Assembly (NCBI GenBank): GCA_038319625.1
Contig: JBBQDK010000001.1
Span: forward strand, 1-62,686
Source of the DNA: Gammaproteobacteria bacterium
Lineage (GTDB): Bacteria > Pseudomonadota > Gammaproteobacteria > JBBQDK01
Length of the DNA: 62,686 nucleotides
Direction of reading: 5' to 3'
Numbering within the stretch: the first letter of the stretch is position 1; each line of letters opens with the position of its first letter. Shown in pieces: positions 10,699-44,638 of the stretch. The translations under genes were made by a program, and so were the position numbers. The notes beneath the pieces are model-generated. The model saw only the letters and a list, made by a program, of their open reading frames with translations, had not been told where the DNA came from and made no database searches.

Positions 10699-11577
10699 TC
10701 AATAGAATCCCCGCTCGCCCTCTGGTCGGACACGAAACCGTTTATAGCTCCACTGATATTGTTCAGGGTGGGCACGCACGCCGTCTTCGATCAGACGATT
10801 CAATATCGCGCCAGCCTGCTCCGGCGTGGCATTGACGAAATCTGCGGGTGCTTCGTGCATGTGCACGTGATAACCGGCGCCATGCGGCAGTCGCTCGGCA
10901 TACGTGAGTATCAATGTGGCACCCGTTTTGCGCGCCAGACGTGCGATCAACACCATGGTGTAGGCGGGCATGCCGAAGAACGGCGCGAACACCCCGCTGC
11001 CGGGATCGGGATTCTGATCGGGCAGGATACCGACCGCCTCGCCCCGTCCCAGAGCCTGATAGAGGGCGCGCACACCACTGGCATCGGTTGGTACCAGGTG
11101 CGCGCCAAGCCGGGCACGTGCTTCGCGCGACAGGTTTTCCAGCGCAAGGAGACGCGGCGGGCGATACAGCGTAGTCATCGGGTAGCGTGACGACACATAC
11201 AGGCCGGCCATCTCCCAGCAACCCAGATGCGGCGAAGCGAAAATTACACCACGACCGCGACGCTGCGCGGCATCGGCACTTTCCAGGCCGTCGACGGCGC
11301 GCAGCTTGCCGAGCAAGCGAGGTGCCGGCCAGCACCACATCGCACCCATCTCCAGGATAGTCTTGCCGGTCTCCATCAGGCTGCGTCGCACCAGGCGAGC
11401 CCGTGCGCGAACATCGAGCTCGGGATAGCAGAGAGTAAGATTAAGTGCGGTGATACGTTGCAAGGAATTGGGCAACAAGTCGAGCGCGAATCCCAGCACC
11501 ACACCCATTGCGTGCGCCACGGGCAACGGCAGTGCCGCGAACAGGCGCAGCAGCAGTTTGATCAGCCACGCGCGCAT
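10699..11577 (-). CDS. LpxL/HtrB-family lipid A (lysophospholipid) acyltransferase
   Basis: It has an N-terminal membrane anchor, the HLGCWE acyltransferase motif and a family-typical C-terminus (HPEQYQWSYKRF). The ATG at 11577 is preferred over the GTG at 11628. Confidence 0.75.
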   Translation of the reverse strand: MRAWLIKLLLRLFAALPLPVAHAMGVVLGFALDLLPNSLQRITALNLTLCYPELDVRARARLVRRSLMETGKTILEMGAMWCWPAPRLLGKLRAVDGLESADAAQRRGRGVIFASPHLGCWEMAGLYVSSRYPMTTLYRPPRLLALENLSREARARLGAHLVPTDASGVRALYQALGRGEAVGILPDQNPDPGSGVFAPFFGMPAYTMVLIARLARKTGATLILTYAERLPHGAGYHVHMHEAPADFVNATPEQAGAILNRLIEDGVRAHPEQYQWSYKRFRVRPEGERGFY

Positions 11578-11628
11578 TACGAGTAATTGCGCCGTGGCAT
11601 CTGCGCACCGTGCTTCACCCGTGCTCAC

Positions 11629-12396
11629 TCATTCCGGCAGCTGCACCGGCCCGGACCCGAGCAGCGGACGCATGGTCGACAGCAGGCTCTTGAACAGATA
11701 CTTATTGTCCTGCTCCTGCGCGGCCAGCAATTGTTTCATATGCCAGCGCTGCGTCGGCTTGCGGAAACAGGCCGGGCAATTGTCGCGGATCACCGGCAGG
11801 CCGGCGCTCTGGGCAAAATCGGCGGTCTGGCGCTCGCGCGCGTACACCAGCGGACGGATCACGCGCACATCACCGGCGTCATTGAGATAATTGGCGCGCA
11901 TGGTGCGCAGTGTGCCGCCGTGAAAGGCCGACATCAGGAAGGTTTCGGCCAAGTCGTCAAGGTGCTGGGCCAGCGCCAGCACGTTATAGCCCTCACGGCG
12001 TGCCGTGGCGTACAACACGCCGCGCTTCATGCGCGAACAGAACGCGCAATAGGACTGATTGCCCATGTGCTGTTGGGCGCGCTCCATGATTGGCTCGCCG
12101 ATCAGAAAATACGGCACCCCAAGCTCAGCCAGGTAGGGTCGCAACGGTTCAAGATCGAAACCTTCCACCTGTGGATCGACACTGGCAACGCCGACCTCAA
12201 AGCGTATCGGAGCATGGCGCTGCAGGTGCAACAGAATGTGCAGCAAGGACAGCGAATCCTTGCCGCCGGACAGCCCCAGCAGTACGCGATCGCCGGTCCT
12301 GATCATGCTGTAGTCGGCGATCGCACGGCCCACCAGCCGCAGCAACGACTTCGGCGGTCTTGTCTGGGGGGCCTGCGTTTTGAAGACGGCGTTCAT
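11629..12396 (-). CDS. ttcA: tRNA 2-thiocytidine biosynthesis protein TtcA (PP-loop ATPase)
   Basis: It has the PP-loop LSGGKDS and two CxxC motifs (CAFC, CPAC). The ATG at 12396 (MNAVFK) is chosen because the upstream extension shows no family features. Confidence 0.8.
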   Translation of the reverse strand: MNAVFKTQAPQTRPPKSLLRLVGRAIADYSMIRTGDRVLLGLSGGKDSLSLLHILLHLQRHAPIRFEVGVASVDPQVEGFDLEPLRPYLAELGVPYFLIGEPIMERAQQHMGNQSYCAFCSRMKRGVLYATARREGYNVLALAQHLDDLAETFLMSAFHGGTLRTMRANYLNDAGDVRVIRPLVYARERQTADFAQSAGLPVIRDNCPACFRKPTQRWHMKQLLAAQEQDNKYLFKSLLSTMRPLLGSGPVQLPE

Positions 12397-13040
12397 GGTG
12401 TCACGGTACCGGACAGCGCCACGGACTGGCAAGCCCCGAGCGAAGGGAATGTCCATAATGGCCACTGAAACGTAGAGCCGGCGGATGACAGCGGCAAGCG
12501 TCAGGCACAACAGGCACAGGCGCGGAAGGTCAAGCCGATCGCCTGTTGAATGAACAGCGCAATGAACGTTGCGTGATTCACGCTTGGCAGCGTGCCGGCA
12601 CAGAGCGATTCCGTCGACGATCCCAATGCCACCTATCATGTGCCTGATGACCTGACCTGGTAAGGTGATTTGCCGCGATTGGTTCAGGTTTCGGTCCAAA
12701 CCAACCTGGGCCATGCTTTTGATTTATCGGCCTGGACAGGCAATACCCGCAGCGAATTGCATTCTTCATTGATGCGGAGCAAGCTAGAGTTGCGAAGTCG
12801 CCTGAAGTGACTGAATAAAATACCAATAACATCCACTTGTCTAAGGCTTGGCGGCGCGCATCGGGTCAAGCCGTGCGAAACGTGCATGTGCAATTGTGTA
12901 AGGCCTCCAAATAGCCTACGCATGATTTTTATCGATTGATTGTGCGTTTTTTAAGTTGAGTCCGCTGTGTAGAACAGTAATGGTTGGCTTAACAGAAAAA
13001 TAAAAGAAACTTTACCGATAATCTAAAAATATACAGTTAC

Positions 13041-15191
13041 ATGCCGACATATCTGAATATGATAAATCTTTTTCGTGAATTGCCCACCGTGCGACTCGGT
13101 CTTCGTCTGACTATTGCATGGATCGCGCTGTGCTTGTCGTTGCCCACTCAAGCCCAATCGTCCTGGGCAGCGACCGACACGCGCGCGCATGCCACAGGCA
13201 GGGCGGCTTTCCGGGGATTTCTTGCGCCAAACGAGTCGCTGGATATTGTGGTAGCTCTCAAGCTGCGGAATCGTGACAAACTGGATGCAATCGTCAAGAC
13301 ACTCATCAAGCCCGGCGATCCATCTTCCAAACATTGGTTGAGCAGTCAACGGATACAAAGCGACTACGCGCCCACTACCGAAAGTGCGCAAACCGTGGCC
13401 GATTATCTGTCCCAGGCAGGCTTTACCAATGTCCAGATCGAACCGAACCGTCTGTTGATAACGGCCACGGGAACAGCTGCCGTGGTACGCAAGGCCTTTA
13501 ATACCGAGATGGCGCACTTCGTTCGCGATGGCCATGAGGGCATTGCAAACGTCAAGGATGTCCAAGTGCCTTCAGCACTGAGAGATTCGGTGCTTTCCGT
13601 GCTCGGATTGCAAACGGTGGATCGCATGCACACGATGATTCAGCCGGCCGTCAGCGTGCAGCTGACGGGCAGTGTGCATGGGATCAATCCGGTCAACTTT
13701 CCGAAAGCCTATAATGCCGCCGGTCTGCCGCCCGCGTCGACAATCACCGTTGGCATCATCACGGTAGGCGTCATGACTCAGTCCATAACGGATCTGCATA
13801 CCTTCGAGGCAAATAACGGCCTGCCGACGATCAATCCCACTGTGGTTACCACCTGGAGCGGCGGGCCAGCGTCGGATACCAGCGGAACGGCAGAATGGGA
13901 TCTCGACAGCCAGACCATCCAGGCCATGGCGGGTGGACAAGTGGCGCAGATGCTTTTTTATACCTCAAAAACATTCTCCGATTCCTATATCACGAAGGCA
14001 CTCAATAGGGCGGTTACAGACAATGTTGCGTCTGTGATCAACGTTTCGCTCGGCATATGCGAATCTTACGCGCAAGCCGATGGGTCGATGGCGGCCGACG
14101 ACCAGATATTCCAGGTGGCGATTGCACAGGGGCAAACCTTTTCGGTCAGCACCGGCGACTCAGGATCGAAGGAGTGCGGCAATCCACTAGGCTCCGTGGC
14201 AGGCGCTTCCTACCCGGCAAGCTCACCTTATGTGATCGCGGTGGGCGGCACCACGCTGTATACCGACACCAGTGGTAATTACGGTGGCGAAACCGTCTGG
14301 AGCGGTACCGGCGGCAGCCCGAGCCTGATCGAACCACAGCCCAGCTGGCAGAACGGCATCGTGCAGGGCGCGAAGCGCGGCGTTCCGGACATCGCGTTCG
14401 ATGCCAACCCCAGTTCCGGGGCGATCATCGTCGTCAATGGTCAGAATGCACAATATGGCGGCACCAGCCTGGCTTCACCACTGTTTGTCGCCAGCTGGGC
14501 ACGGATCCAGACTGCGAATAATGCCAGGCTCGGGTTTCCGGCCACCTGGATTTACAATCACGGCGCGCAAATGACGTCGGCCTTCCATGACGTGATCTCC
14601 GGCTCGAACGGGGATTACAGCGCTGCGACCGGTTGGGATTACACGACGGGTTACGGCAGCTTCGACGTCGCCGCCACTGCCTTGCTTACGCGCAGTACGG
14701 TGACCGTTAGCGCCTCACCCGCCACGATCATCACCGGCCAGTCAGTCACACTTACCGCAACAGTGACGGGTAATTCGCCTACCGGGACCGTGCAGTTTCT
14801 CGTCAATGGTGTTTCTTTCGGCTCCCCGGTACAACTGGTGAACGGTGTAGCAACGCTGACAACAAACCAGTTGACAGCGGTGGGCAACACTTCGATCAGC
14901 GCTATTTACTCGGGCGATCTCAATAATGCCGGAGGCGGTACCGTGACTACTTTTACCGAGACTGTGACACCGCCACATGACGGAGATATCAATGGCGATG
15001 GTGTGGTCAATGTGGTGGATGTCATGCTTACCGAACAAATTGCAATGGGCCAACTTGCGCCGACCACCAATCAGTTCGCGCACGGCGATGTCGCGCCGCT
15101 GGTGAACGGCGTGCCGGCACCGGATGGCAAGATCGATGCGGCAGACGTCCTTGTCATCGAGCGCAAAGCATTAGGGGCTGTGAATTTCTGA
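13041..15191 (+). CDS. Secreted S53 (sedolisin/kumamolisin-type) serine peptidase with pro-domain, Ig-like domain and C-terminal dockerin-type repeats
   Basis: It has a signal peptide, a pro-kumamolisin-like N-terminal region, and a catalytic-type AEWDLDSQ plus the serine motif GGTSLASP. An Ig-like segment follows (VTVSASPATIITGQSVTLTATVTGNSPTGTVQFLVNG...). Two dockerin-like Ca-binding repeats are present (DINGDGVVNVVDV, APDGKIDAADVLV; 14979-15188). Confidence 0.8.
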   Translation: MPTYLNMINLFRELPTVRLGLRLTIAWIALCLSLPTQAQSSWAATDTRAHATGRAAFRGFLAPNESLDIVVALKLRNRDKLDAIVKTLIKPGDPSSKHWLSSQRIQSDYAPTTESAQTVADYLSQAGFTNVQIEPNRLLITATGTAAVVRKAFNTEMAHFVRDGHEGIANVKDVQVPSALRDSVLSVLGLQTVDRMHTMIQPAVSVQLTGSVHGINPVNFPKAYNAAGLPPASTITVGIITVGVMTQSITDLHTFEANNGLPTINPTVVTTWSGGPASDTSGTAEWDLDSQTIQAMAGGQVAQMLFYTSKTFSDSYITKALNRAVTDNVASVINVSLGICESYAQADGSMAADDQIFQVAIAQGQTFSVSTGDSGSKECGNPLGSVAGASYPASSPYVIAVGGTTLYTDTSGNYGGETVWSGTGGSPSLIEPQPSWQNGIVQGAKRGVPDIAFDANPSSGAIIVVNGQNAQYGGTSLASPLFVASWARIQTANNARLGFPATWIYNHGAQMTSAFHDVISGSNGDYSAATGWDYTTGYGSFDVAATALLTRSTVTVSASPATIITGQSVTLTATVTGNSPTGTVQFLVNGVSFGSPVQLVNGVATLTTNQLTAVGNTSISAIYSGDLNNAGGGTVTTFTETVTPPHDGDINGDGVVNVVDVMLTEQIAMGQLAPTTNQFAHGDVAPLVNGVPAPDGKIDAADVLVIERKALGAVNF

Positions 15192-15439
15192 CAATTGACA
15201 TGGGCGTGGTCAGGATTCTCTGCCTGGGTTGCGCGTACACACTGTTGAACTTCGGAAATTCAGGTACTGACTGCTAGACCAAGTTTGAGTTATTGCGGAC
15301 AGCCATGGACACTTTATATCTCAACGTTCGCGCACTGTGGAATTCGAATCACGTTCATCTCACTTAAGGCATCGATGATCCTTCCCGCTACCGAAAAGCA
15401 GTTGGTACATTCCAATGGCAGGACAGCCTATCCCAATCC

Positions 15440-35525: not shown

Positions 35526-36139
35526 TGCGCAATGGTGATCGCTCACCGTCAAGAAAGGTATCCCGGTAACAAACGGAGCCTGCGATGTCACGCTAATGCC
35601 GTCATCCGAAATGATGTGGCTCGAATATACTGACGATTACATCCAATCGGCCATCTTCATCACATCGCTGACCACCGCGTCAGAACAATCTTTAATTTTC
35701 GGTTTAGTCAACGTCTGGGACGGGCCAAGCATCCGGGTGACGCATACTGCCACGGCAAACGACTTACCGATCATGTTTCATGACATTAAAGTCGGGGATA
35801 ACCCCGCCTATCTGGTACGTCTGTGATACCCCATCAATTCAAACACTCGACCTGGTGAACGGCCGCTTCCAGGGCCTAAACCGCCGCTCACGGCAACCGG
35901 GTCGAAGGGCAGCTATGCAGCGACAGCAGACCTTGGTGTTACTGAATCGAGTGTCCGAATGCTCGAAGCAAGATCGCAATTCCGCTGCTATAGCCTAGAT
36001 CGGCCAGGAACAGGCATTCGTCCGCCCTCGAATGGTTCTGAAGGGGCTGTGTTACGCAAAGAGACCTTCTGCACCACATCTGTAACAATGCTGTTCAAAC
36101 AGTATGTTGGGGTGCATCTTGAGATATCCTGAGCAGCCA

Positions 36140-36175
36140 GTTACTATTATGAGTAATTTTACTCAGAATAGTAAC
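36140..36175. promoter_or_regulatory. 36-nt near-perfect palindrome abutting the start codon of the AAA/DUF4143 gene (operator- or hairpin-like)
   Basis: GTTACTATTATGAGTAA-tt-TTACTCAGAATAGTAAC has 17-nt arms matching at 16 of 17 positions. It ends 1 nt before the ATG at 36177. No Shine-Dalgarno sequence is visible. Confidence 0.6.
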
Positions 36176-36176
36176 T

Positions 36177-37433
36177 ATGCCTATTAAGCCCTACCAGCGC
36201 AAGGAAGTTGAGACCCTTCTTGAACGGCTTTTAGAGCCGCCGCGTTCGCTGATTATAGTTGCAGGGCCACGTCAGGTCGGCAAAACCACGTTGGTACGTG
36301 ATGCGCTGGCTCAATATGAGCGAAAGCGTTATTCCTTCATTCCTGTTGATCAGCCGGACGAGATACGTGCCCCCGGCTTTGCGTCCATTGAGAGTGACAC
36401 TTACGATCAGGCTGGTCGCCCGAGGGATGTTGCGTGGCTGGTCGCACAGTGGCAACGCGCCCGCATGGCAGCACGGGAGTCGGTGGATGGGCATATTCTT
36501 GCCCTCGATGAAATCCAGAAAATCCCCCACTGGTCGGATGCAGTCAAGGGGCTATGGGATGCTGACAGGTCTGAAGGATTGACATTGCATGTCGTACTGT
36601 TGGGATCGTCCCCTTTATTGATGCAGAAGGGCATGAGCGAGAGCCTGACCGGACGCTATGAGCTGATTCGCGTCACGCACTGGTCTTTCCTCGAAATGTA
36701 CGAAGCCTTTGATTTCGATTTGGACGACTACATCTATTTTGGCGGCTATCCCGGTAGCACCGCATATATTCGTGACGAGCCGCGCTGGCGCAATTATGTG
36801 AACGGTAGCTTGATTGAGCCAAGTATCGAGAAGGATATTCTGATGATGACGCGGGTTGATAAACCAGCGCTACTCAAGCAATTGTTTCACCTTGGCTGTA
36901 GTTTCTCAGGGCAGATATTGTCCTATACCAAAATGCAAGGCCAGCTTCAGGATGCCGGCAATACGGTGACACTCGCACATTATCTCGATCTTCTAGGGAA
37001 TGCCGGATTAATTTATGGCTTACAAAAGTATGCGGGACAACAACATCGGCGACGGGCATCTTCCCCCAAGTTTAATGTGCTCAACAATGCTTTGATGTCG
37101 GCCGGGTCTGGATACACCAAAACCGAAGCGAAAGCGGATCGTAGTTTTTGGGGACGATTGGTGGAAAGTGCAGTGGGAGCGCATCTCTACAATACTGGAC
37201 ACCCTGATTGCCATCTCCATTATTGGCGAGAAGGTTCCAGAGAAGTTGATTTTGTAATTGAGGGCAACAGGAAACTTGCTGCCGTCGAAGTGAAAAGTGG
37301 GCCATCCTCTGGTCATACTAGCGGGGTCGATGTATTCGGGGAAAACTTTGGCAAGTGCCGGAGGTTATTGGTTGGCGAAGGCGGCATCCCGATTGCCGAA
37401 TTCCTCTCCTATCCGGCGGAGCACTGGCTTTGA
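36177..37433 (+). CDS. AAA-family ATPase with C-terminal DUF4143-like (D...ExK) module (COG1373-type)
   Basis: It has Walker A GPRQVGKTT (36264-36290) and Walker B ILALDEIQ. The C-terminal EVDFVI...AVEVKSG (37242-37295) is typical of AAA_14+DUF4143 proteins. Confidence 0.8.
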   Translation: MPIKPYQRKEVETLLERLLEPPRSLIIVAGPRQVGKTTLVRDALAQYERKRYSFIPVDQPDEIRAPGFASIESDTYDQAGRPRDVAWLVAQWQRARMAARESVDGHILALDEIQKIPHWSDAVKGLWDADRSEGLTLHVVLLGSSPLLMQKGMSESLTGRYELIRVTHWSFLEMYEAFDFDLDDYIYFGGYPGSTAYIRDEPRWRNYVNGSLIEPSIEKDILMMTRVDKPALLKQLFHLGCSFSGQILSYTKMQGQLQDAGNTVTLAHYLDLLGNAGLIYGLQKYAGQQHRRRASSPKFNVLNNALMSAGSGYTKTEAKADRSFWGRLVESAVGAHLYNTGHPDCHLHYWREGSREVDFVIEGNRKLAAVEVKSGPSSGHTSGVDVFGENFGKCRRLLVGEGGIPIAEFLSYPAEHWL

Positions 37434-40400
37434 CCAAAGCGAACGAACCCTTCCTCGTTCGGCGCACGTGCACGCGCAGATCGGGAAACACGGAGGGGCA
37501 AGGAAGTCACCCGCTGGAGGAATATCGCGACCTGCCCGCATACGTGTTGCTTGGCGATCCGGGCGCAGGCACGACGGAAACCTTCAAGTTGGAAGCGCGC
37601 GAGTCCGGCGGCAAATATATCAAAGCGCGCGACTTTGCCACTTTTGAGCCGGGAGTGGAATATCAGGGTAAAACTTTATTCATAGACGCACTAGACGAAA
37701 TGCGCGCCGATGGAGGTGATGGACGGACACCACTCGACCACATACGTAGGCATCTGGAGAGGTTGGGATACCCGTGTTTTCGTCTCTCCTGTCGCGAGGC
37801 GGACTGGCTGGGGGCGAGTGATAACGAAGCATTGAAACGCGTGTCACCCAGCGGCGATGTCATCGCCCTGCATCTTGATCCGTTGACCGATGATGACGTT
37901 GCCGAAATTCTGCGGCACAAAACCACTATTCCCAACCCGAATGAATTCATACGCAAGGCGCGAGATCACAAGCTCGACGAACTCCTGCGCAACCCGCAAA
38001 CGCTGGATTTGCTTGTGGATGCCGTAGGCGGAAATGAATGGCCGCAAAGTCGCAAGGAAATTTATGAGATGGCGTGTCGCCATCTTGTGTCCGAAATGAA
38101 TCCAGAACACCGACGAGCCAAACGAGAGGAAGCGCTCCCCGCCGAAACACTGCTCAATGTCGCAGGATACTTATCCGCTATACAGTTGCTATCTGGACTC
38201 GCCGGTTTCTCTATTGATGAGGCGATGGCCGACAAGGAATACTTCTGCTGGAAAGAACTGCTGGAGCATGGCCCCCCACTACTTGCCGCACTAAAAACAA
38301 ACCTGTTTCAAGGGGACGGTGAGGAACGACGCATTCCCATTCATCGTAGCGTCGCGGAATATCTGGGCGCTCGCTACCTTGCTTCACTCATCGAAAATAA
38401 CGGTCTGCCATTTGGTCGTGTTCTTGCATTGATGACGGGTGGCGATGGCGGCGTGGTGACCGACCTGCGCGGCCTCGCGGCATGGCTATCGGTTCATTGC
38501 CTCAGCGGACGGCATGTATTGATTGAGCGCGATCCATTGGGGGTTGTGCTCTATGGTGACGTGCGCAATTTCCCTGTAGCAGACAAGCACCTTGTCCTCG
38601 CAGCATTAAGAAACGAGGCACGACGCTATCCATGGTTCCGTTCAGAGGATTGGTCATCTCCGCCTTTTGGCGCGTTGGGTACCATGGATATGGCATCCGC
38701 ATTCGTGGAAATACTCTCCTCTCCTTCGCGAGAAGAGGCCAACCTAGCGTTGCTGGATTGCGTGTTCGACGCCATACGTTATGGTGAGCGCATGTCCGCT
38801 CTGGCTGGCCCATTGGAAGCCATCGCACGGGATGTCAGCTACCAACAAGGAATAAGAACGAATGCGGTGCGAGCTTGGGCGCATATTGCTCCGGATGATT
38901 ATTCCAAACTGCTGAGGCTTGCGGAAGATATTCGCACAGGTGTCGTCGAAGACAGAGACGATGAAATGCTTGGCACTGTTTTAGGCAAGCTCTACCCACA
39001 AACTATTTCGCCAGCTCAAATATTCGATTACCTCCAACCACGGAAGGATGACAGCCTGATTGGCAGCTATTTCTCATTCTGGAGTCACAATCTCCCGGAT
39101 GGAGCGGCCAATGATGATGTGCCGCTGTTGCTGGATCAGCTGGTGCAAAAACTGACAGTAATGAGAAAAGCCCTGCATGAGACACAACTCAACAGAATGG
39201 CAGGGAAGTTACTGGTGCGAGGGCTAAAGCATTACGGAGATGCAATTATCGATGAACGCCTCTACGAGTGGCTAGGCGTTGGTCTTGATGAATACGCTCA
39301 TCCCCATCTTGATCGGGAATATGCTGAGTGCATTGCTAAGTGGTTTGAGAATCGCCCTGATCGCTACAAGGCCATGATCCGTCACGGCGAATCTCTATGT
39401 GTCGGAAGCGACAATATTCAATATTGCATGTACCGATGCACAATGAGGCTTTACGCTTCTGCACCCCCAGCAGATATCGGCAGCTGGTATCTGGAGAGGG
39501 CGGCAGCTGAACTGGGTGCTGAATTGGCTGGCTATTACTTCACCCAAACGATTCTCTTACTGAGACAACAAGGCGGACAAAAAGAACTAACTCTCCCTGC
39601 CCTGGAATTCCTTGAATCATGGACAAAAGCTTACCCAACCCTCCAGCCGTGGCTTGACCGGTTTATAACTTGCGATATCGGAGACTGGCAACAGAAACAT
39701 GCCATAGAAGATAGCAAAAGAAAGTTCGAACGTCAGAAACGGAAAAATGAATGGGTAAGTTATTACCGCCAAAACATTGATGCAGTTCGTGATGGCAGCG
39801 CACACCCACAGATATTTCATGATCTTGCGATGGCATACTATGGTTTGCTTTATGAGGTCTCCGGCGAAACACCACGCGAACGTCTGGAGGATTTCCTTGA
39901 TGGCGACGTAGAGTTGATCGAGGCCGCCTATGCAGGTTTTCGCCATACCCTTGACCGCCGCGACTTGCCGACAGTTCGCGAAATTGTCGATCTGGAATTA
40001 AAGGGGCGGAATCATTACATACGCAAGGCCTGTCTAGTGGGTATGGAAGAACTATATCAGGCTGGTCCATCCAGTGTATCGCGGCTTGCCGATGATGTGC
40101 TAAAGCGGTTATTGGCATTTCGCTTTACTTACAACGTCGGAGACGATCCGGCATGGTTTGCTTCGCTGGTGCGGGAACGTCCTGAGTTGGTGGCTGAAGT
40201 GTTGGTCGCTTATGCCTTGCCCATGCTGCGCGCTGGAAAGGAGCACGTCGCAGGGCTGTATCCATTGGCCTATGATGATGCGTACGCCGAGGTGGCTCAC
40301 ATTGCGCTGCCTGTATTGTTGGATGGTTTTCCACTACGTGCTAGCAAGCTTCGATTATCAAATGCACTCGACCCGCTTATTAAGGGAGCGTTGCACTATC

Positions 40401-41536
40401 TCGACAGGAAGATGCTCGCATCATTGATTGCCCGGAAACTCGAATTGAGAAGCATGGATGCAGCGCAACGAATCTATTGGCTAGGCTGCGGCTTGCTGCT
40501 AGCTCCAGATATTTATGAAGACAGGTTGATTCAATACATCGGTAAGAACGCCGTTCGCAGAGGCTATCTGGCTGGCTTTCTGCATAGCCGTGAAGCACGT
40601 CGCTTGCCGGATAGTGCGCCCTTGTCCGAAGTCACTCTTGCCCATCTGATTGAGTTGCTGGCACCGGGTTGTTCTCCCGAACGTCCTACTGGGGCACACT
40701 GGGTCAGTCCGGCCATGGAAACCGCCGATATGGTGCGTTCTTTCGTCAACACACTGGGCGGCAATCCCAAGGAAACCGCGAACCGCGAACTTGAACGCTT
40801 GCTGACTTTGCCAAATATCGCGCCTTGGAAAAACTACTTACGCAACGCTTTGCACACCCAACGCATCGCCCGACGCAGGGCGACATTCTATCGCTTAAGC
40901 GTCGAGGAAGTCAGCCGCACACTCGCCAATCTCCAACCCGCCAGTGCAGCCGATCTTGCCGCACTGACGTTCGACTATCTGCGCGACATCGCCAAGAAGA
41001 TCCGCGATGGAAGTACCAACGACTATCGGCAGTATTGGAGCTACGATAAGGACAATAAAGAACTGAAGAAGCCAAAACCAGAGAACGACTGCCGTGATGC
41101 GTTGTTGTCCGACCTCAATGAGCGATTGGGAAGGCTCGGTATTGATGCGCGGCGAGAGGGTAATTATGCAGATGAGAAACGTGCCGACATTCAAGTTTCA
41201 TTCGGTGGTGCCAATGGATTTAATGTGCCAATCGAAATCAAAAAAGATAACCACCGCGATCTCTGGCGTGCCATCCACAAACAACTGATCCAAAAATATG
41301 TCCGCGATCCGGGTGCAGATGGGCATGGAATTTATCTCGTCTTCTGGTTCGACGGAAAAGGGCTGCCACCGCCACCCGATGGCAGCAGGAAGCCTCGTAA
41401 CGCCCAAGAGCTGGAAGACCGTCTACGGCAGACGCTCTCGCCGGAAGAAAGCCATCGCATCCAGATTTGCGTGATTGATTGCGCGTTACCTGATGTGAAT
41501 TCAAAGTCTGCTTTGGAGAAACACGGACGTCAGTAA
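37430..41536 (+). CDS. Giant STAND/NACHT-like NTPase (degenerate Walker A) with long helical region and C-terminal PD-(D/E)xK-like nuclease motif
   Basis: The TTG at 37430 overlaps the upstream stop (TTGA), and an alternative GTG lies at 37355. It has GDPGAGTT (37553-37576, no Lys) and Walker B TLFIDALDE (37676-37699). LDPLTDDDVAEIL and HRSVAEYLGARYL resemble NACHT-type signatures. The C-terminus carries ENDCRD...RADIQV...PIEIKK (41081-41242). Confidence 0.7.
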   Translation: MTKANEPFLVRRTCTRRSGNTEGQGSHPLEEYRDLPAYVLLGDPGAGTTETFKLEARESGGKYIKARDFATFEPGVEYQGKTLFIDALDEMRADGGDGRTPLDHIRRHLERLGYPCFRLSCREADWLGASDNEALKRVSPSGDVIALHLDPLTDDDVAEILRHKTTIPNPNEFIRKARDHKLDELLRNPQTLDLLVDAVGGNEWPQSRKEIYEMACRHLVSEMNPEHRRAKREEALPAETLLNVAGYLSAIQLLSGLAGFSIDEAMADKEYFCWKELLEHGPPLLAALKTNLFQGDGEERRIPIHRSVAEYLGARYLASLIENNGLPFGRVLALMTGGDGGVVTDLRGLAAWLSVHCLSGRHVLIERDPLGVVLYGDVRNFPVADKHLVLAALRNEARRYPWFRSEDWSSPPFGALGTMDMASAFVEILSSPSREEANLALLDCVFDAIRYGERMSALAGPLEAIARDVSYQQGIRTNAVRAWAHIAPDDYSKLLRLAEDIRTGVVEDRDDEMLGTVLGKLYPQTISPAQIFDYLQPRKDDSLIGSYFSFWSHNLPDGAANDDVPLLLDQLVQKLTVMRKALHETQLNRMAGKLLVRGLKHYGDAIIDERLYEWLGVGLDEYAHPHLDREYAECIAKWFENRPDRYKAMIRHGESLCVGSDNIQYCMYRCTMRLYASAPPADIGSWYLERAAAELGAELAGYYFTQTILLLRQQGGQKELTLPALEFLESWTKAYPTLQPWLDRFITCDIGDWQQKHAIEDSKRKFERQKRKNEWVSYYRQNIDAVRDGSAHPQIFHDLAMAYYGLLYEVSGETPRERLEDFLDGDVELIEAAYAGFRHTLDRRDLPTVREIVDLELKGRNHYIRKACLVGMEELYQAGPSSVSRLADDVLKRLLAFRFTYNVGDDPAWFASLVRERPELVAEVLVAYALPMLRAGKEHVAGLYPLAYDDAYAEVAHIALPVLLDGFPLRASKLRLSNALDPLIKGALHYLDRKMLASLIARKLELRSMDAAQRIYWLGCGLLLAPDIYEDRLIQYIGKNAVRRGYLAGFLHSREARRLPDSAPLSEVTLAHLIELLAPGCSPERPTGAHWVSPAMETADMVRSFVNTLGGNPKETANRELERLLTLPNIAPWKNYLRNALHTQRIARRRATFYRLSVEEVSRTLANLQPASAADLAALTFDYLRDIAKKIRDGSTNDYRQYWSYDKDNKELKKPKPENDCRDALLSDLNERLGRLGIDARREGNYADEKRADIQVSFGGANGFNVPIEIKKDNHRDLWRAIHKQLIQKYVRDPGADGHGIYLVFWFDGKGLPPPPDGSRKPRNAQELEDRLRQTLSPEESHRIQICVIDCALPDVNSKSALEKHGRQ

Positions 41537-42192
41537 TAGGTCGACCCAGTACCTTCCCACCCCATCAATCTGTTTGCACCAAGGTCCGGTAATCGCCGAA
41601 AGCACGAATTCGACGACAATCACGAAACGTCCGCTCACGCTGCGTAGCCGCCAGTCACGGATTACCGCGCCAGTGTCCGCTGCCAAGCTGCCGGTCACTG
41701 CTCGTCGCGTCAATGACTGTTCCGCAGCGTAACCAGCCATTGACGATAAAGTGCCAGGCTGAGGATTTAGACTAAACCCAGACACTCAAATTGAAGGTAA
41801 ATGATACCGGCATTATCTGTCTTGTAAGAAATTATTTCGAGATGGACGGGCAAAGGAATAATTCGTGCCGCAATGCTTGTATTCCAAGCTTCATCGGCGT
41901 ATTAAATATATCAACGGTTTTTCTCGAACCCACAGATCTGCATTCCTGTTCGTACGACAGATCCCGCCTACTAACTGGCAGGCAGCAAGCCGGAAATAAC
42001 AAGTTTGACATAAACAATAATGCTGCGTGCAGGAATGTCGTGGCGGGAAGAGATAATCATGAAAGCCAATCACGCCAACATACTCTGCTCCTGTGCACTT
42101 AATGTCTATGACAGCATAGACCGTACATATGCTGCTTACTTAGTGGACGCAACTATCAAACTACACAAGGAAATAATATTCAGAAGGATCAC

Positions 42193-42843
42193 ATGAATAA
42201 ATTAAAACTAATAATTGCGGTATCTGCACTTCTGCTTACATTTATGAGTATGTCAGTAGATGCATCAACAGTGGCCTATGACTTTACTTGGCAGGTCACG
42301 CAAAATTCTGATTCAAGTGCGGGCGTATTTTCTGATATTTCTGCTGTTAATGTCGGAGACATTTTTAGCGGTTACTTCTTTGTCAGTGAATCACCAGATG
42401 GACAGATTCATGGTAATAATAATTCAGTATATGTCTCAATAAATGACTTTTTTTTATACAGCTCGAGTTATGAGCCGTTCTATACATTCTTCTTTAACAA
42501 TACTAATCAAACAGGGCTTTTTATTCAGGCAAGTTACGGCATTGGATTTAGCTACCCGCGAAGCCCATTTAAGGGTTACTTCAGTCTATGGATCGACCTC
42601 GGCAACCCATCCGACGGAACGGGTAACGCATCCCTACCGAGCACCTTGTCACTCGCCGACTTTTCCATTGCCACAGTCCAAGTCGTGGTGTTGGGCGGCC
42701 CGGCAAATCCAGATAGTAGTTTTTCGCTTCTTGGGAACGTAGTCTCACTAACTGAGGTTCCAGTTCCATCATCGTTGTGGCTATTTAGTACGGGGTCGCT
42801 GGGACTGATAGGATTTGCCTGGCGCAAGAATGTAGATTTATAA
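42193..42843 (+). CDS. PEP-CTERM sorting-domain protein (secreted)
   Basis: It has an AGAAGGA RBS and a signal peptide (MNKLKLIIAVSALLLTFMSMSVDA). The C-terminal VPVPSSLWLFSTGSLGLIGFAWRK combines a PEP-like motif, a TM helix and a basic tail. The gene is AT-rich. Confidence 0.7.
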   Translation: MNKLKLIIAVSALLLTFMSMSVDASTVAYDFTWQVTQNSDSSAGVFSDISAVNVGDIFSGYFFVSESPDGQIHGNNNSVYVSINDFFLYSSSYEPFYTFFFNNTNQTGLFIQASYGIGFSYPRSPFKGYFSLWIDLGNPSDGTGNASLPSTLSLADFSIATVQVVVLGGPANPDSSFSLLGNVVSLTEVPVPSSLWLFSTGSLGLIGFAWRKNVDL

Positions 42844-43600
42844 ATCACGACCACGCAACAGCTGTCTTTGAGACTGCCTTTTTATGTTGCTGGCAGTGTA
42901 GGTTTTGCCGTTATTACCCAATCGCACGTTGCAGCACCACTGACTGGTTCACTGCCGATTACTCGTTGCATTTCAGTTTTGCAGGATACTTACAGTAATC
43001 CTGCCTTGAAGAGAATGTGCTTCTGAACTGCTAAAATGAATGGTCTGGGTTGACGCTAGTGGGGTTAGGGAGTCAAGGGGGGGTTAGGTCCAACATCGCA
43101 ACGCCGATAACGTAATTAGTTGGTGGTCCACGTTTAGATCATTTGCCTTTGAAGTAATGTGCAATCGTTAAGAAAACCTCGCCTCGGCGGCGTCTTTTTT
43201 GTTTTCGTAAGCGGCTTTTTTTTGAAAGTGCCTGTTCGACTCGCTGACTTGATCGTCTCCTTTCAGTATGCTTCTGCCAGTCCCGGCAGACTGTTCCAAT
43301 GGCCGCTTCGTAGCATAAAGCGGCCAGTCATTCTTGGGCTGGACATGCCGATTGTTCCGGACTTTAATCACAGGGGCATCAGAAAGAGTATCAATACGAT
43401 GCAGAATGTCCTTGGCTAAATGCCAGCGTAGTTAATGAGTAGACTGTGTTATGGCAGTGGGTGTTGTCCCCGAATTTAATGTCATGGAACCGATCTCTTG
43501 TACCAATTTTTCTGGCATTGTCCTCTGCCAAACTCCGGACCCACCTACTTTGCGTCATTCTGTAAAGGCCTGCCAGTGTTGGGTGGTGTAACACAATTCA

Positions 43601-44638
43601 TCAACCCGCAGCAGCGGCTGCATCGGTTGCCGATATTCGCCAACCCAGATCGTGTGCCCGCTTGGCCGCCTGTGCCGGGATATCGGTGGCTATGAATTGG
43701 TGGTGCAGCACTTGCACACCGATCACATGGTTTATCACCGCATCGAGTTGCACCATCGTCGCGGTCGGGGTGTCCGCCCGTTCGTGCAGATCGAACAGTG
43801 CGCGTATGCCCGCGCGATCCAGCAGGCCGGCGGATTCAATGGCCGTATCCGCAAGGTATTCCTCCGCCAACAGCTTCATTGCCGCCCATTTTTTAGGATC
43901 GGTATGTGCGGGTGGCGCCATGAAGGCAAACTTCTCCCGCTCGTACAGTACCTTCGGCAGCAGACCCTTCATTGCCTCGCGCAATACATATTTCTCCGTG
44001 CGTCCCTTGATGCGCAGCGCGGGTGGCACGTGCGTCGCGAACTCGGCCAGATGATGGTCGAGAAACGGCGGTCGCGCCTCCATGGAATTCGCCATGTCCA
44101 CGCGGTCGCCACCCCAGGTGAGGATCTGACCTTCGAACATAGTCTTGATCCACACCTATTGGGCCTGGTCCAGTGGGTGTCGACCGGCAAGCATGTTGCC
44201 ATCCAGCGCCTCGGCGATGGCGCTGCCGGGCCGGCAATCCCGCAGAGCTGCACGCCTGTCCTTGTGGATCAAACCTTGTACATGCTGCGTCACGGCCAGC
44301 CACGGCTGCAGGTAACTCGGCGTGAACCCGACCAATGCCGTTAGCGCCGAATCATCCACCGTTTCTTCGGCCAGCGTGGCGCCGCGGAGTAGTTGATTCT
44401 TTTCCGCCAGTGTTTGTTCCCAGATAGCGCGCTCGGCTCCTGGCAACGTATCGTGGCCGTGCAGAAACATGTCGTGGCGAAATGCCGGGTAACCCGCAAA
44501 CAGTTCATCGGACCCTTCGCCGGTTATCACCACTTTGTAGCCAATCTGCCGGACGTGGCGGCTCATCAGCAGCTTCGCCACAATTTCTCGACAGCTGGAT
44601 TCGATGATGCAATCATTAACCGTCCTGCGCTCTGGACC
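43601..44638 (-). pseudogene. Asparagine synthase (glutamine-hydrolysing, AsnB-family) C-terminal fragment: 5'-truncated and interrupted by an in-frame TAG
   Basis: Synthetase-domain motifs are present (KVVITGEGSDELFAGY, GDRVDMANSMEARPPFLD). The GATase domain and PP-loop are absent, and similarity stops at a stop codon near 44639. An in-frame TAG at 44156-44158 (minus strand) splits the remainder. Confidence 0.7.

Follow-up and report, generated by a model that had tools for sequence, protein, structure and literature searches.

The window analysed here, a stretch of 62,686 nucleotides (nt) from a Gammaproteobacteria bacterium (assembly GCA_038319625.1, contig JBBQDK010000001.1), carries two overlapping genes which had been proposed to form a defence-type cassette in an earlier reading of the DNA letters made without database searches (hereafter the sequence-only reading). 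The downstream gene (gene 2) encodes a STAND-type NTPase of the EruA family, and the upstream gene (gene 1) encodes an AAA+ ATPase with a DUF4143 domain. Comparison of homologous loci showed that gene 1 is an obligate, translationally coupled and co-diverging partner of EruA throughout one clade of the EruA family. The two genes probably form one transcription unit and, together, an anti-phage system that is a two-component variant of Erebus/Avs10. Each of the two genes has already been catalogued, gene 2 in the validated EruA/Erebus/Avs10 family and gene 1 as the candidate PDC-S01. What appears to be new is the pairing of gene 1 with EruA.

Conserved pairing of gene 1 with EruA

The pairing was analysed in 92 loci of EruA relatives from genomes, plasmids and metagenomes, 80 of which had at least 600 nt of upstream DNA and were evaluable. 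A homologue of gene 1 was located directly 5' of the EruA gene, on the same strand, in 68 of the 80 loci. When the loci were sorted by the identity of their EruA to that of the window, the partnered share was 11/12 at 60-100% identity, 7/8 at 45-60%, 29/29 at 38-45%, 21/26 at 33-38% and 0/5 below 33%. A partner was present in 47 of the 49 loci with an EruA at least 38% identical to that of the window. The junction between the two genes was tight in 67 of the 68 partnered loci. In 32 of them the two genes overlap as NTGA. Of the remaining 36 loci, 35 have a candidate start codon of EruA at -7 to +10 nt from the stop codon of gene 1, locus L017 being the exception. The identities of gene 1 and gene 2 to the window copies were correlated (r=0.94). 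Gene 1 was the slower-evolving partner, with a mean identity to the window copy of 63% versus 45% for gene 2. All partners tested matched one and the same PADLOC sub-model, PDLC04791, with scores of about 540-550 bits.

Linkage of the homologues had been set beforehand as a test of the cassette, and it was found in the reverse direction as well. For the reverse test, loci were picked by gene 1 alone; they comprised two viral contigs, with a gene 1 identity of 54-56%, together with the contigs that carry P0131, P0228 and P0216. In all of these loci, which have unrelated flanks, gene 1 was followed immediately, with a 4- or 8-nt overlap, by a gene with DUF8371 (PF28130), the Pfam domain of the relatives of gene 2 (more than 2400 homologues).

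In the window itself, both same-strand open reading frames (ORFs) claimed by the sequence-only reading were found at the coordinates it had given. The operon with translational-coupling geometry that it had deduced was also borne out, both by the TTGA overlap, which could be read directly, and by the tight junctions in the homologous loci. The 3' end of gene 1 reads CAC TGG CTT TGA, and the TTG codon at 37430 overlaps its stop codon as cTTGA. A GGAG sequence, located 8 nt 5' of this TTG, lies within the conserved tail of gene 1 (AEHWL). Gene 2, which ends at 41536, could start either at GTG 37355 (1393 aa) or at TTG 37430 (1368 aa). Since the homologues of gene 2 (1350-1360 aa) start at the codon equivalent to TTG 37430 (MxxxxxPFLVRRTC), and since the same NTGA overlap was seen at 32 of the 68 junctions, gene 2 probably starts at TTG 37430.

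A neighbour-joining tree was built from 84 EruA proteins, and its 66 partnered members all fell within a single clade, which has 77 leaves. Scattered through this clade are six solo loci, which look like secondary losses. The seven EruA proteins outside the clade are all solo; they come from P. aeruginosa, Burkholderia, Paracoccus, Bradyrhizobium, Vibrio, Pantoea and Ralstonia. The protein from P. aeruginosa (P0249) scored 1478 bits on the EruA model and is encoded by a stand-alone gene, which lies on an integrative and conjugative element in one genome. No AAA_14/DUF4143 neighbour was found at the P. aeruginosa EruA. The prototype clade is solo, and the EruA of the window therefore falls in a large sister clade that scores just above the equivalog cutoff and has a dedicated partner.

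Natural fusions of the two genes were found in an exhaustive phmmer search with gene 1, which gave 513 representatives below 1e-30. In a protein of 1812 aa (P0365), the tail of gene 1 (...FLSRPATAWL) runs directly into the N-terminus of EruA (...FVQRTCTE...), and both P-loops are intact. This protein is 36% identical to the EruA of the window over 1400 residues. The gene 1-EruA fusion is known as two distinct sequences, one of which is a single ORF on a 4.98-Mb contig with AAA_14, DUF4143 and DUF8371. A second architecture was found in three shorter proteins of 676-857 aa (P0369, which has 801 aa, P0373 and P0437), in which all that follows the gene 1 module is a homologue of EruA residues 760-1058 (31% identity, E=4e-33); the NACHT domain and the EruA nuclease are missing. 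These shorter proteins are encoded by stand-alone genes on long contigs. Both fusion architectures therefore indicate that the gene 1 module has repeatedly been wired to EruA or to part of its sensor.

The upstream region of gene 1 is conserved together with the pair. A 38-bp dyad, the arms of which are 94% complementary, ends 1 nt before the ATG of gene 1, and the candidate -10 box of a sigma-70-like promoter sits in its left arm. The promoter candidate is a consensus match only (9 of 12 positions), and a -35-like CTTGAG and a TAnnAT recur at the same offset in close homologous loci. When the core of the dyad was searched for as GAGTAAATTTACTC with up to two mismatches, it was conserved, as TGAGTAAATTTACTCA, ahead of gene 1 in 71 of the 73 loci that could be evaluated; the two remaining loci carry variants of the core with three mismatches. 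The same search never found it in the EruA loci that have no partner. In the window GAGTAAATTTACTC occurs once, and elsewhere in 1.07 Mb it occurs three times, one of which is also 5' of a gene 1. The fusion gene is preceded by a symmetrically mutated dyad, TTGAATAAATCTATTCA.

Positions 1-8 from the centre of the dyad are conserved. Positions 9-19 vary yet stay complementary (44-79%, versus 29-52% after shuffling of the partners, with three to four types of pair), and no complementarity was found beyond position 19. The G.T and A.C mismatches are balanced (107 and 96). No Rfam family matches the dyad. Since the two kinds of mismatch are balanced and the -10 box lies in the left arm, the comparison speaks for a DNA operator, bound by a dimeric protein, rather than for an RNA hairpin. 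Gene 1 is the obvious candidate for the protein that would bind it.

Two neighbours of solo EruA genes were considered as distant partners and rejected. The 'ATP-binding protein' of Burkholderia is a Schlafen AlbA_2/HATPase_c_4 protein, and the DUF4143 neighbour in Paracoccus belongs to another PDC-S01 subfamily (PDLC04790) and has no operator.

Some loci of EruA relatives have other arrangements. A Schlafen AlbA_2 + HATPase_c_4 protein was located 5' of EruA, on the same strand, at two unrelated solo-type loci, one in Burkholderia ambifaria (L011:3121-4587, with a gap of 435 nt) and the other in a metagenome (L081:571-2229, also L082, with a gap of about 190 nt). This neighbour could be a second, looser kind of partner, or it could be a coincidence. 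In the P. aeruginosa loci (L112-L118), EruA is consistently followed by two large genes on the same strand (11217-13811 and 13756-15204), the products of which (864 and about 385-482 aa) have no Pfam or NCBIfam match. On one metagenome contig (L030: 3-2726 and 3498-4196), a second homologue of gene 1 with its own dyad was located about 770 nt 3' of EruA, which suggests two cassettes side by side.

Architecture of the two proteins and their relation to known systems

Gene 2 matches the NCBIfam model NF058535, 'NACHT domain-containing antiphage protein EruA', with 1051.1 bits against a curated cutoff of 1000, and the match spans model positions 1-1317 of 1318. This pass is borderline: members of the partnered clade score 1015-1054 bits, versus 1320-1480 bits for the prototype clade. 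The symbols EruA and HyoA stand for the genes of Erebus and Hypnos, respectively. The HyoA model (NF058534) aligned with gene 2 over most of its length at 151.8 bits against a cutoff of 1200, so that gene 2 is not a member of Hypnos. No match to gene 2 was found in the Pfam copy used or in PADLOC 2023, the Avs models included, and a PDB sequence search gave P-loop kinases only.

The conservation of residues in gene 2 was read from an alignment (A1) with identities of 24-78%, which includes Burkholderia, Paracoccus and other distant members. The Walker B motif pointed out by the sequence-only reading (TLFIDALDE) is present and conserved. It is followed by a sensor-1-like LSCR motif and an NPQxL motif (Table 1), which we take to be signatures of NACHT-type NTPases. 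The Pfam NACHT domain was undetected in the window protein and was detected in 1 of 13 aligned members (E=7e-4), with a faint or precomputed match in the prototype clade. The central helical region, the presumed ligand sensor, is the fastest-evolving part of the protein. Within the partnered clade its mean identity is 34%, versus 45% for the NTPase and 48% for the nuclease-like end; relative to the EruA of P. aeruginosa, its identity is about 20%, versus 35-36% for the two ends. Such a divergence pattern is what one expects of a ligand sensor engaged in an arms race.

The C-terminus of gene 2 is likely to be a PD-(D/E)xK nuclease. Residues E1218, D1253, E1269 and K1271 (1368-aa numbering) are invariant down to 24% identity, and the E..D..ExK module noticed in the earlier reading is thus a conserved feature, its D1278, E1294 and K1296 (1393-aa numbering) being D1253, E1269 and K1271. 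In an AlphaFold2 model of residues 1100-1368 (mean predicted local distance difference test score (pLDDT) 74, core 80-90), the module shows an alpha-beta-beta-beta-alpha-beta order, and the conserved residues occupy the canonical PD-(D/E)xK positions. The top Foldseek matches of the model, weak as they are, are nearly all PD-(D/E)xK nucleases (Can1, PspGI, Mus81/XPF, Can2, SwaI, NucS, PaqCI and VRR-NUC). Pfam gave no match for this module. The EruA of the window carries about 13 extra C-terminal residues (DVNSKSALEKHGRQ; 41495-41533) past ...CVIDCALP, where nearly all close homologues end.

Gene 1 was correctly recognised in the earlier reading as an ATPase of the AAA_14+DUF4143 layout. Both domains were matched in Pfam (AAA_14, 4e-23, residues 24-174; DUF4143, 2e-27, residues 218-375), and a PD-(D/E)xK-like module lies at the end of the protein. 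PADLOC assigns gene 1 to the candidate PDC-S01, sub-model PDLC04791 (4e-166, model positions 2-393 of 395). The Walker A motif, which had been described as intact, and the EVDF...EVK motif are invariant across the gene 1 family, and so is the Walker B motif; this invariance of the Walker A, Walker B and PD-(D/E)xK triad extends over identities of 52-91%. Compared with the family, the gene 1 of the window carries three mild substitutions and is otherwise intact. Foldseek, run on a low-confidence model, showed a resemblance of the AAA+ part to RFC/ORC/Cdc6 (about 1e-4), and the C-terminus gave weak matches to YraN, EcoO109I and NERD. No match to gene 1 was found in a PDB sequence search, and no model for it in NCBIfam. 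DUF4143 presumably contains a winged helix, for which weak GntR and Sta1 matches in a related DUF4143 protein also speak. A profile-profile comparison of the two families aligned the P-loop alone (9% probability), and the two nuclease-like modules are therefore not detectably related.

Table 1. Features of the cassette, its upstream region and the natural fusions. Coordinates are those of the window unless a locus is named; residue numbers of gene 2 follow the 1368-aa form.
Feature	Coordinates	Strand	Description
Promoter candidate	36119-36147	+	Sigma-70-like; -35 TTGAGA 36119-36124, 17-nt spacer, -10 TACTAT 36142-36147
Dyad	36139-36176	.	38 bp, operator-like; arms 36139-36156 and 36159-36176; core TGAGTAATTTTACTCA 36150-36165
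Gene 1	36177-37433	+	418 aa; AAA_14 + DUF4143 ATPase, PADLOC PDC-S01 sub-model PDLC04791
Gene 1 Walker A	36264-36290	+	G30/G35/K36/T38, invariant in family
Gene 1 Walker B		+	D111-E112, invariant in family
Gene 1 nuclease-like triad	37242-37295	+	E356/D358...E371-x-K373, invariant in family
Coupling junction	37418-37433	+	GGAG 37418-37421, TTG 37430-37432, TGA 37431-37433
Gene 2	37430-41536	+	1368 aa; EruA-family (Erebus/Avs10; Pfam DUF8371) STAND NTPase
Gene 2 degenerate Walker A	37553-37576	+	G42-D-P-G-A-G-T48-T49; ACG at 37571-37573 replaces invariant Lys (K48T)
Gene 2 Walker B	37673-37699	+	TLFIDALDE (D86, D89, E90), invariant or nearly so in A1
Gene 2 sensor-1-like LSCR, then NPQxL		+	R122; N188, P189; invariant or nearly so in A1
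Gene 2 central helical region	38870-40819	+	About residues 481-1130; presumed ligand sensor, fastest-evolving part
Gene 2 PD-(D/E)xK-like module	41030-41479	+	About residues 1201-1350; E1218, D1253, E1269-x-K1271, Q1285
Fusion genes	L122:5001-10439; L120:7001-9406		Proteins P0365, P0369, P0373, P0437

Erebus (EruA) of Pseudomonas aeruginosa was reportedly described by van den Berg et al. in 2024, bNACHT64 by Kibby et al. in 2023 and Avs1-Avs5 by Gao et al. in 2022. Gene 2 shares with Erebus, bNACHT64 and Avs10 the full-length EruA match, the length and the order of NTPase, helical sensor and C-terminal module; the invariant NTPase and E..D..ExK..Q residues are common to it and the P. aeruginosa-type proteins. 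It differs from Erebus in its overall identity of about 25-30%, in a sensor about 20% identical and in the lower score on the model (1051 versus 1320-1480 bits). Moreover, the prototype clade is solo, whereas the clade of the window has a coupled 5' AAA+/nuclease partner and a conserved operator, and the window copy lacks the Walker A lysine. Avs1-Avs5 follow the same logic, in which a STAND NTPase carries a repeat sensor for a conserved phage protein and a fused nuclease. In these systems, however, the effector is N-terminal and the proteins act alone, and the PADLOC Avs models gave no match to the window.

Erebus, Hypnos and bNACHT64 have been grouped as Avs10, a family in which the trigger is the major capsid protein of the phage (HK97 fold) and toxicity requires the effector domain (Lee et al. 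2026 preprint, PMC12803255). Hypnos (HyoA) is thus a related NACHT antiphage protein placed in the same group (PMC12803255), but the window protein falls far below its cutoff. The partnership with gene 1 is not mentioned in the Avs10 preprint (PMC12803255). PDC-S01 has been described as an unvalidated single-gene candidate, an ATPase fused to a PD-(D/E)xK domain, and reported as the fourth most common 'defence' in prokaryotes (PMC12988326). One of its representatives, cloned alone, gave no protection against T4, T5 or T7 (bioRxiv 10.1101/2024.09.26.614923). Gene 1 agrees with this candidate in its full-length PDLC04791 match and in the ATPase + PD-(D/E)xK architecture (COG1373-type). PDC-S01 is catalogued as a single-gene system, whereas the PDLC04791-type genes sampled here were always followed by EruA or fused to EruA or to part of its sensor.

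These assignments revise some claims of the sequence-only reading. It knew of no named system of this composition, a statement that can no longer be maintained now that gene 2 passes the EruA cutoff (NF058535) and gene 1 is PDC-S01 of PADLOC. PADLOC, which it had proposed to run, gave a match for gene 1 and none for gene 2. The order of NTPase, repeats and nuclease, which it took for a new inversion of the Avs order, is the normal architecture of the EruA family. On the other hand, the two proteins were not assigned to one named system, since they map to two separate single-gene entries. Its description of a two-component make-up also stands, with a STAND-type NTPase that has a C-terminal PD-(D/E)xK-like module and an AAA_14/DUF4143 ATPase that has a nuclease-like module of its own.

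The pairing is of some consequence for the way in which such genes are catalogued. Erebus/Avs10 has been treated as a single-protein receptor and PDC-S01 as a separate, abundant candidate, and the pairing ties both entries into one system. Annotation tools would count the present locus as two systems or as one incomplete system. The pairing also provides a handle on the function of the abundant DUF4143/COG1373 ATPases, the mechanism of which has so far been blank, and a way to study the cooperation of NLR-like sensors with helper subunits in bacteria.

Proposed mechanism and its alternatives

We propose that EruA would act as an intracellular pattern-recognition receptor, in which a NACHT-like STAND NTPase at the N-terminus is followed by about 650 aa of helical sensor and, at the C-terminus, by a PD-(D/E)xK nuclease. 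The helical region would bind a conserved phage protein, for which the major capsid protein is the best guess by homology with the tested Avs10. By the same homology, EruA would then oligomerise through its ATP-bound NTPase, the nuclease would be switched on, and the infected cell would be killed or the DNA destroyed. Gene 1 would be an integral, co-inherited subunit, namely an AAA+ ATPase that has a region for binding DNA as well as a PD-(D/E)xK site of its own, and the translational coupling would cause gene 1 and EruA to be made in a fixed ratio. Because the fusions join the C-terminus of gene 1 to the N-terminus of EruA, gene 1 most likely works physically with EruA, where it would serve as a licensing factor, a gatekeeper or a second nuclease. 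Gene 1 probably also represses the operon by binding the 38-bp dyad over the -10 box.

Several facts weigh against this proposal. Solo EruA genes exist, including that of P. aeruginosa, in which Erebus was defined, and Avs10 expressed alone gives trigger-dependent death (PMC12803255); the partner is therefore not a general requirement of the family. The experiments on Avs10 come from members outside the partnered clade. Since the sensor of the window EruA is about 20% identical to that of the prototype, its trigger may differ from the capsid protein. A Foldseek search of the PDB with the C-terminus of EruA gave nothing below 1e-3, the best match being Can1 at 0.014. The AlphaFold2 model of gene 1 is poor (pLDDT 51), and therefore only its AAA+ matches were used. 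No helix-turn-helix family was found in gene 1 by Pfam, and gene 1 is thus only a putative binder of the dyad. If the dyad were transcribed whole, the RNA would form a hairpin of -20 kcal/mol (z=-4.5). The cassette of the window lies outside any defence island. The pairing is undescribed in the searchable literature, a scope that does not take in the original Erebus description, where a mention of the partner is possible. Finally, because an invariant lysine of the Walker A motif is substituted, the EruA of the window is probably unable to bind ATP, and this copy may be inactive.

The last point deserves closer attention. The sequence-only reading had described GDPGAGTT as P-loop-like; the motif is indeed there, but its canonical lysine is gone, which that reading overlooked. 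The canonical GK[ST] is kept by 82 of 82 homologues. The substitution K48T is the sole deviation of the window EruA among the 79 columns conserved at 95% or more, and it arises from a single A-to-C substitution in an otherwise pristine ORF of 1368 aa. It could be a recent loss-of-function allele, or it could be a sequencing error.

It may well be, with a likelihood a little short of even, that the cassette of the window is an inactivated allele: the family works, and the EruA of this copy no longer binds or hydrolyses ATP or signals. This explanation would qualify the two-component proposal for the present copy. Besides the isolated position of the substitution among the conserved columns, it accords with the fact that mutation of the P-loop lysine is a classic cause of loss of function in STAND/NLR proteins. 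Against it, the ORF shows no other damage and gene 1 is intact but for its mild substitutions; the A-to-C change could be an error of sequencing or of the consensus, and some P-loop NTPases tolerate unusual residues at this place. In any case, the K48T allele illustrates that a 'hit' in an annotation need not mean a working system.

There is another possible interpretation, which concerns the role of gene 1. Gene 1 might be a transcriptional autoregulator or safety catch only, which represses at the dyad and perhaps restrains EruA, with EruA being autonomous as in Pseudomonas. Solo EruA proteins suffice elsewhere, and the dyad tracks gene 1 and is absent at the solo loci. The fusion of gene 1 with EruA is also compatible with a role as a regulator; regulators are often fused to, or coupled with, toxic defence proteins. 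However, the invariant Walker A, Walker B and PD-(D/E)xK triad of gene 1 would be unexpected for a simple repressor, and the proteins of about 800 aa join the gene 1 module to a sensor segment of the EruA type. As these proteins have neither the NACHT domain nor the EruA nuclease, the gene 1 module would therefore itself be able to act as an NTPase/effector engine. We consider the restricted role of a regulator unlikely.

It is very unlikely that PDC-S01 and Erebus are independent single-gene systems that merely travel together. The databases list each of them as stand-alone, and casual adjacency does occur, as seen in Paracoccus, where a DUF4143 gene of the other PDC-S01 subfamily lies beside a solo EruA. 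Nevertheless, the order, the strand and the overlapping or nearly abutting junction are fixed in the 68 partnered loci, and a separate promoter would not fit between the genes. The partner comes from a single subfamily in every case and diverges together with EruA (r=0.94), the reverse test was positive throughout, and fusions exist. The PDC-S01 representative that failed to protect against the three phages had been cloned alone.

The two-gene module lies in unrelated flanks across genomes, its GC content is below that of its surroundings, and the AAA+ part of gene 1 resembles loaders of the ORC/Cdc6/RFC type, yet the idea that gene 1 is a mobility function like TnsC/TnsA, the dyad an element end and EruA the cargo of a small mobile element is scarcely credible, as the dyad is single, stands at the promoter and has no second copy downstream, terminal repeats, target duplications and an integrase were looked for and none was found, the 14-nt inverted repeat around the cassette (36101/42071) is at chance level for 7 kb, no cargo other than EruA was seen, and the geometry of the junction is that of translational coupling.

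The proposal of a two-component variant of Erebus/Avs10 in which gene 1 and EruA work together can be extended, although the extension is doubtful. PDC-S01/COG1373-type proteins, at least those of the present subfamily, might be modular NTPase-nuclease engines that dock onto STAND sensors, and not autonomous defence genes. If so, gene 1 and EruA would make up a stoichiometric complex, in which gene 1 would read out the sensing of the capsid and add licensing or a second DNA cleavage; gene 1 would also set the expression of the operon via its own operator. The proteins of about 800 aa, consisting of a gene 1 module and a fragment of the EruA sensor, would then be a minimal one-chain version, and gene 1/EruA would be a bacterial counterpart of the sensor/helper NLR pairs. 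In PARIS (AriA/AriB), Gabija (GajA/GajB) and the sensor/helper NLR pairs of plants, a P-loop ATPase partner scaffolds, licenses or restrains an effector. The comparison is one of analogy only, and we know of no detectable homology between these systems and the cassette.

Surroundings of the cassette

The genes neighbouring the cassette are ordinary ones, namely PPK2, a PEP-CTERM protein, a split remnant of an Asn synthase and a patatin-like lipase. The pair therefore sits alone, as the sequence-only reading had it. No tRNA or integrase was found around the cassette in the window. The GC (guanine plus cytosine) content of the cassette is 0.49-0.54, versus 0.58-0.64 in the flanks. The earlier statement that the cassette occupies the AT-richest part of the region held only in part: its GC content is indeed low, but the 1-kb bin richest in AT (42001-43000, GC 0.43) is found a short way downstream of it.

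The 14-nt inverted repeat that flanks the cassette (36101-36114 and 42071-42084) is 93% complementary, and its two halves are 5956 nt apart. It is probably meaningless, as by our estimate chance alone would give about as many such pairs in 7 kb as were seen.

The window contains a second stretch of lower GC content (0.49-0.56) at about 15-19 kb. Beside it, at 13041-15191, lies a gene for a secreted-type protein of 716 aa with pro-kumamolisin activation, Big_3_5 and dockerin domains, followed by genes of the OmpA family and for a rhodanese; nothing defence-like was seen there.

Downstream of the cassette, the gene for the PEP-CTERM protein (42193-42843) lies within the AT-richest bin and precedes the Asn-synthase remnant. 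The latter consists of two adjoining ORFs on the reverse strand (43601-44581), in different frames, which match positions 214-344 and 106-176 of the Pfam Asn_synthase profile. These ORFs lack the N-terminal half and have the appearance of a disrupted pseudogene of asparagine synthase, located where the low-GC stretch ends on its downstream side.

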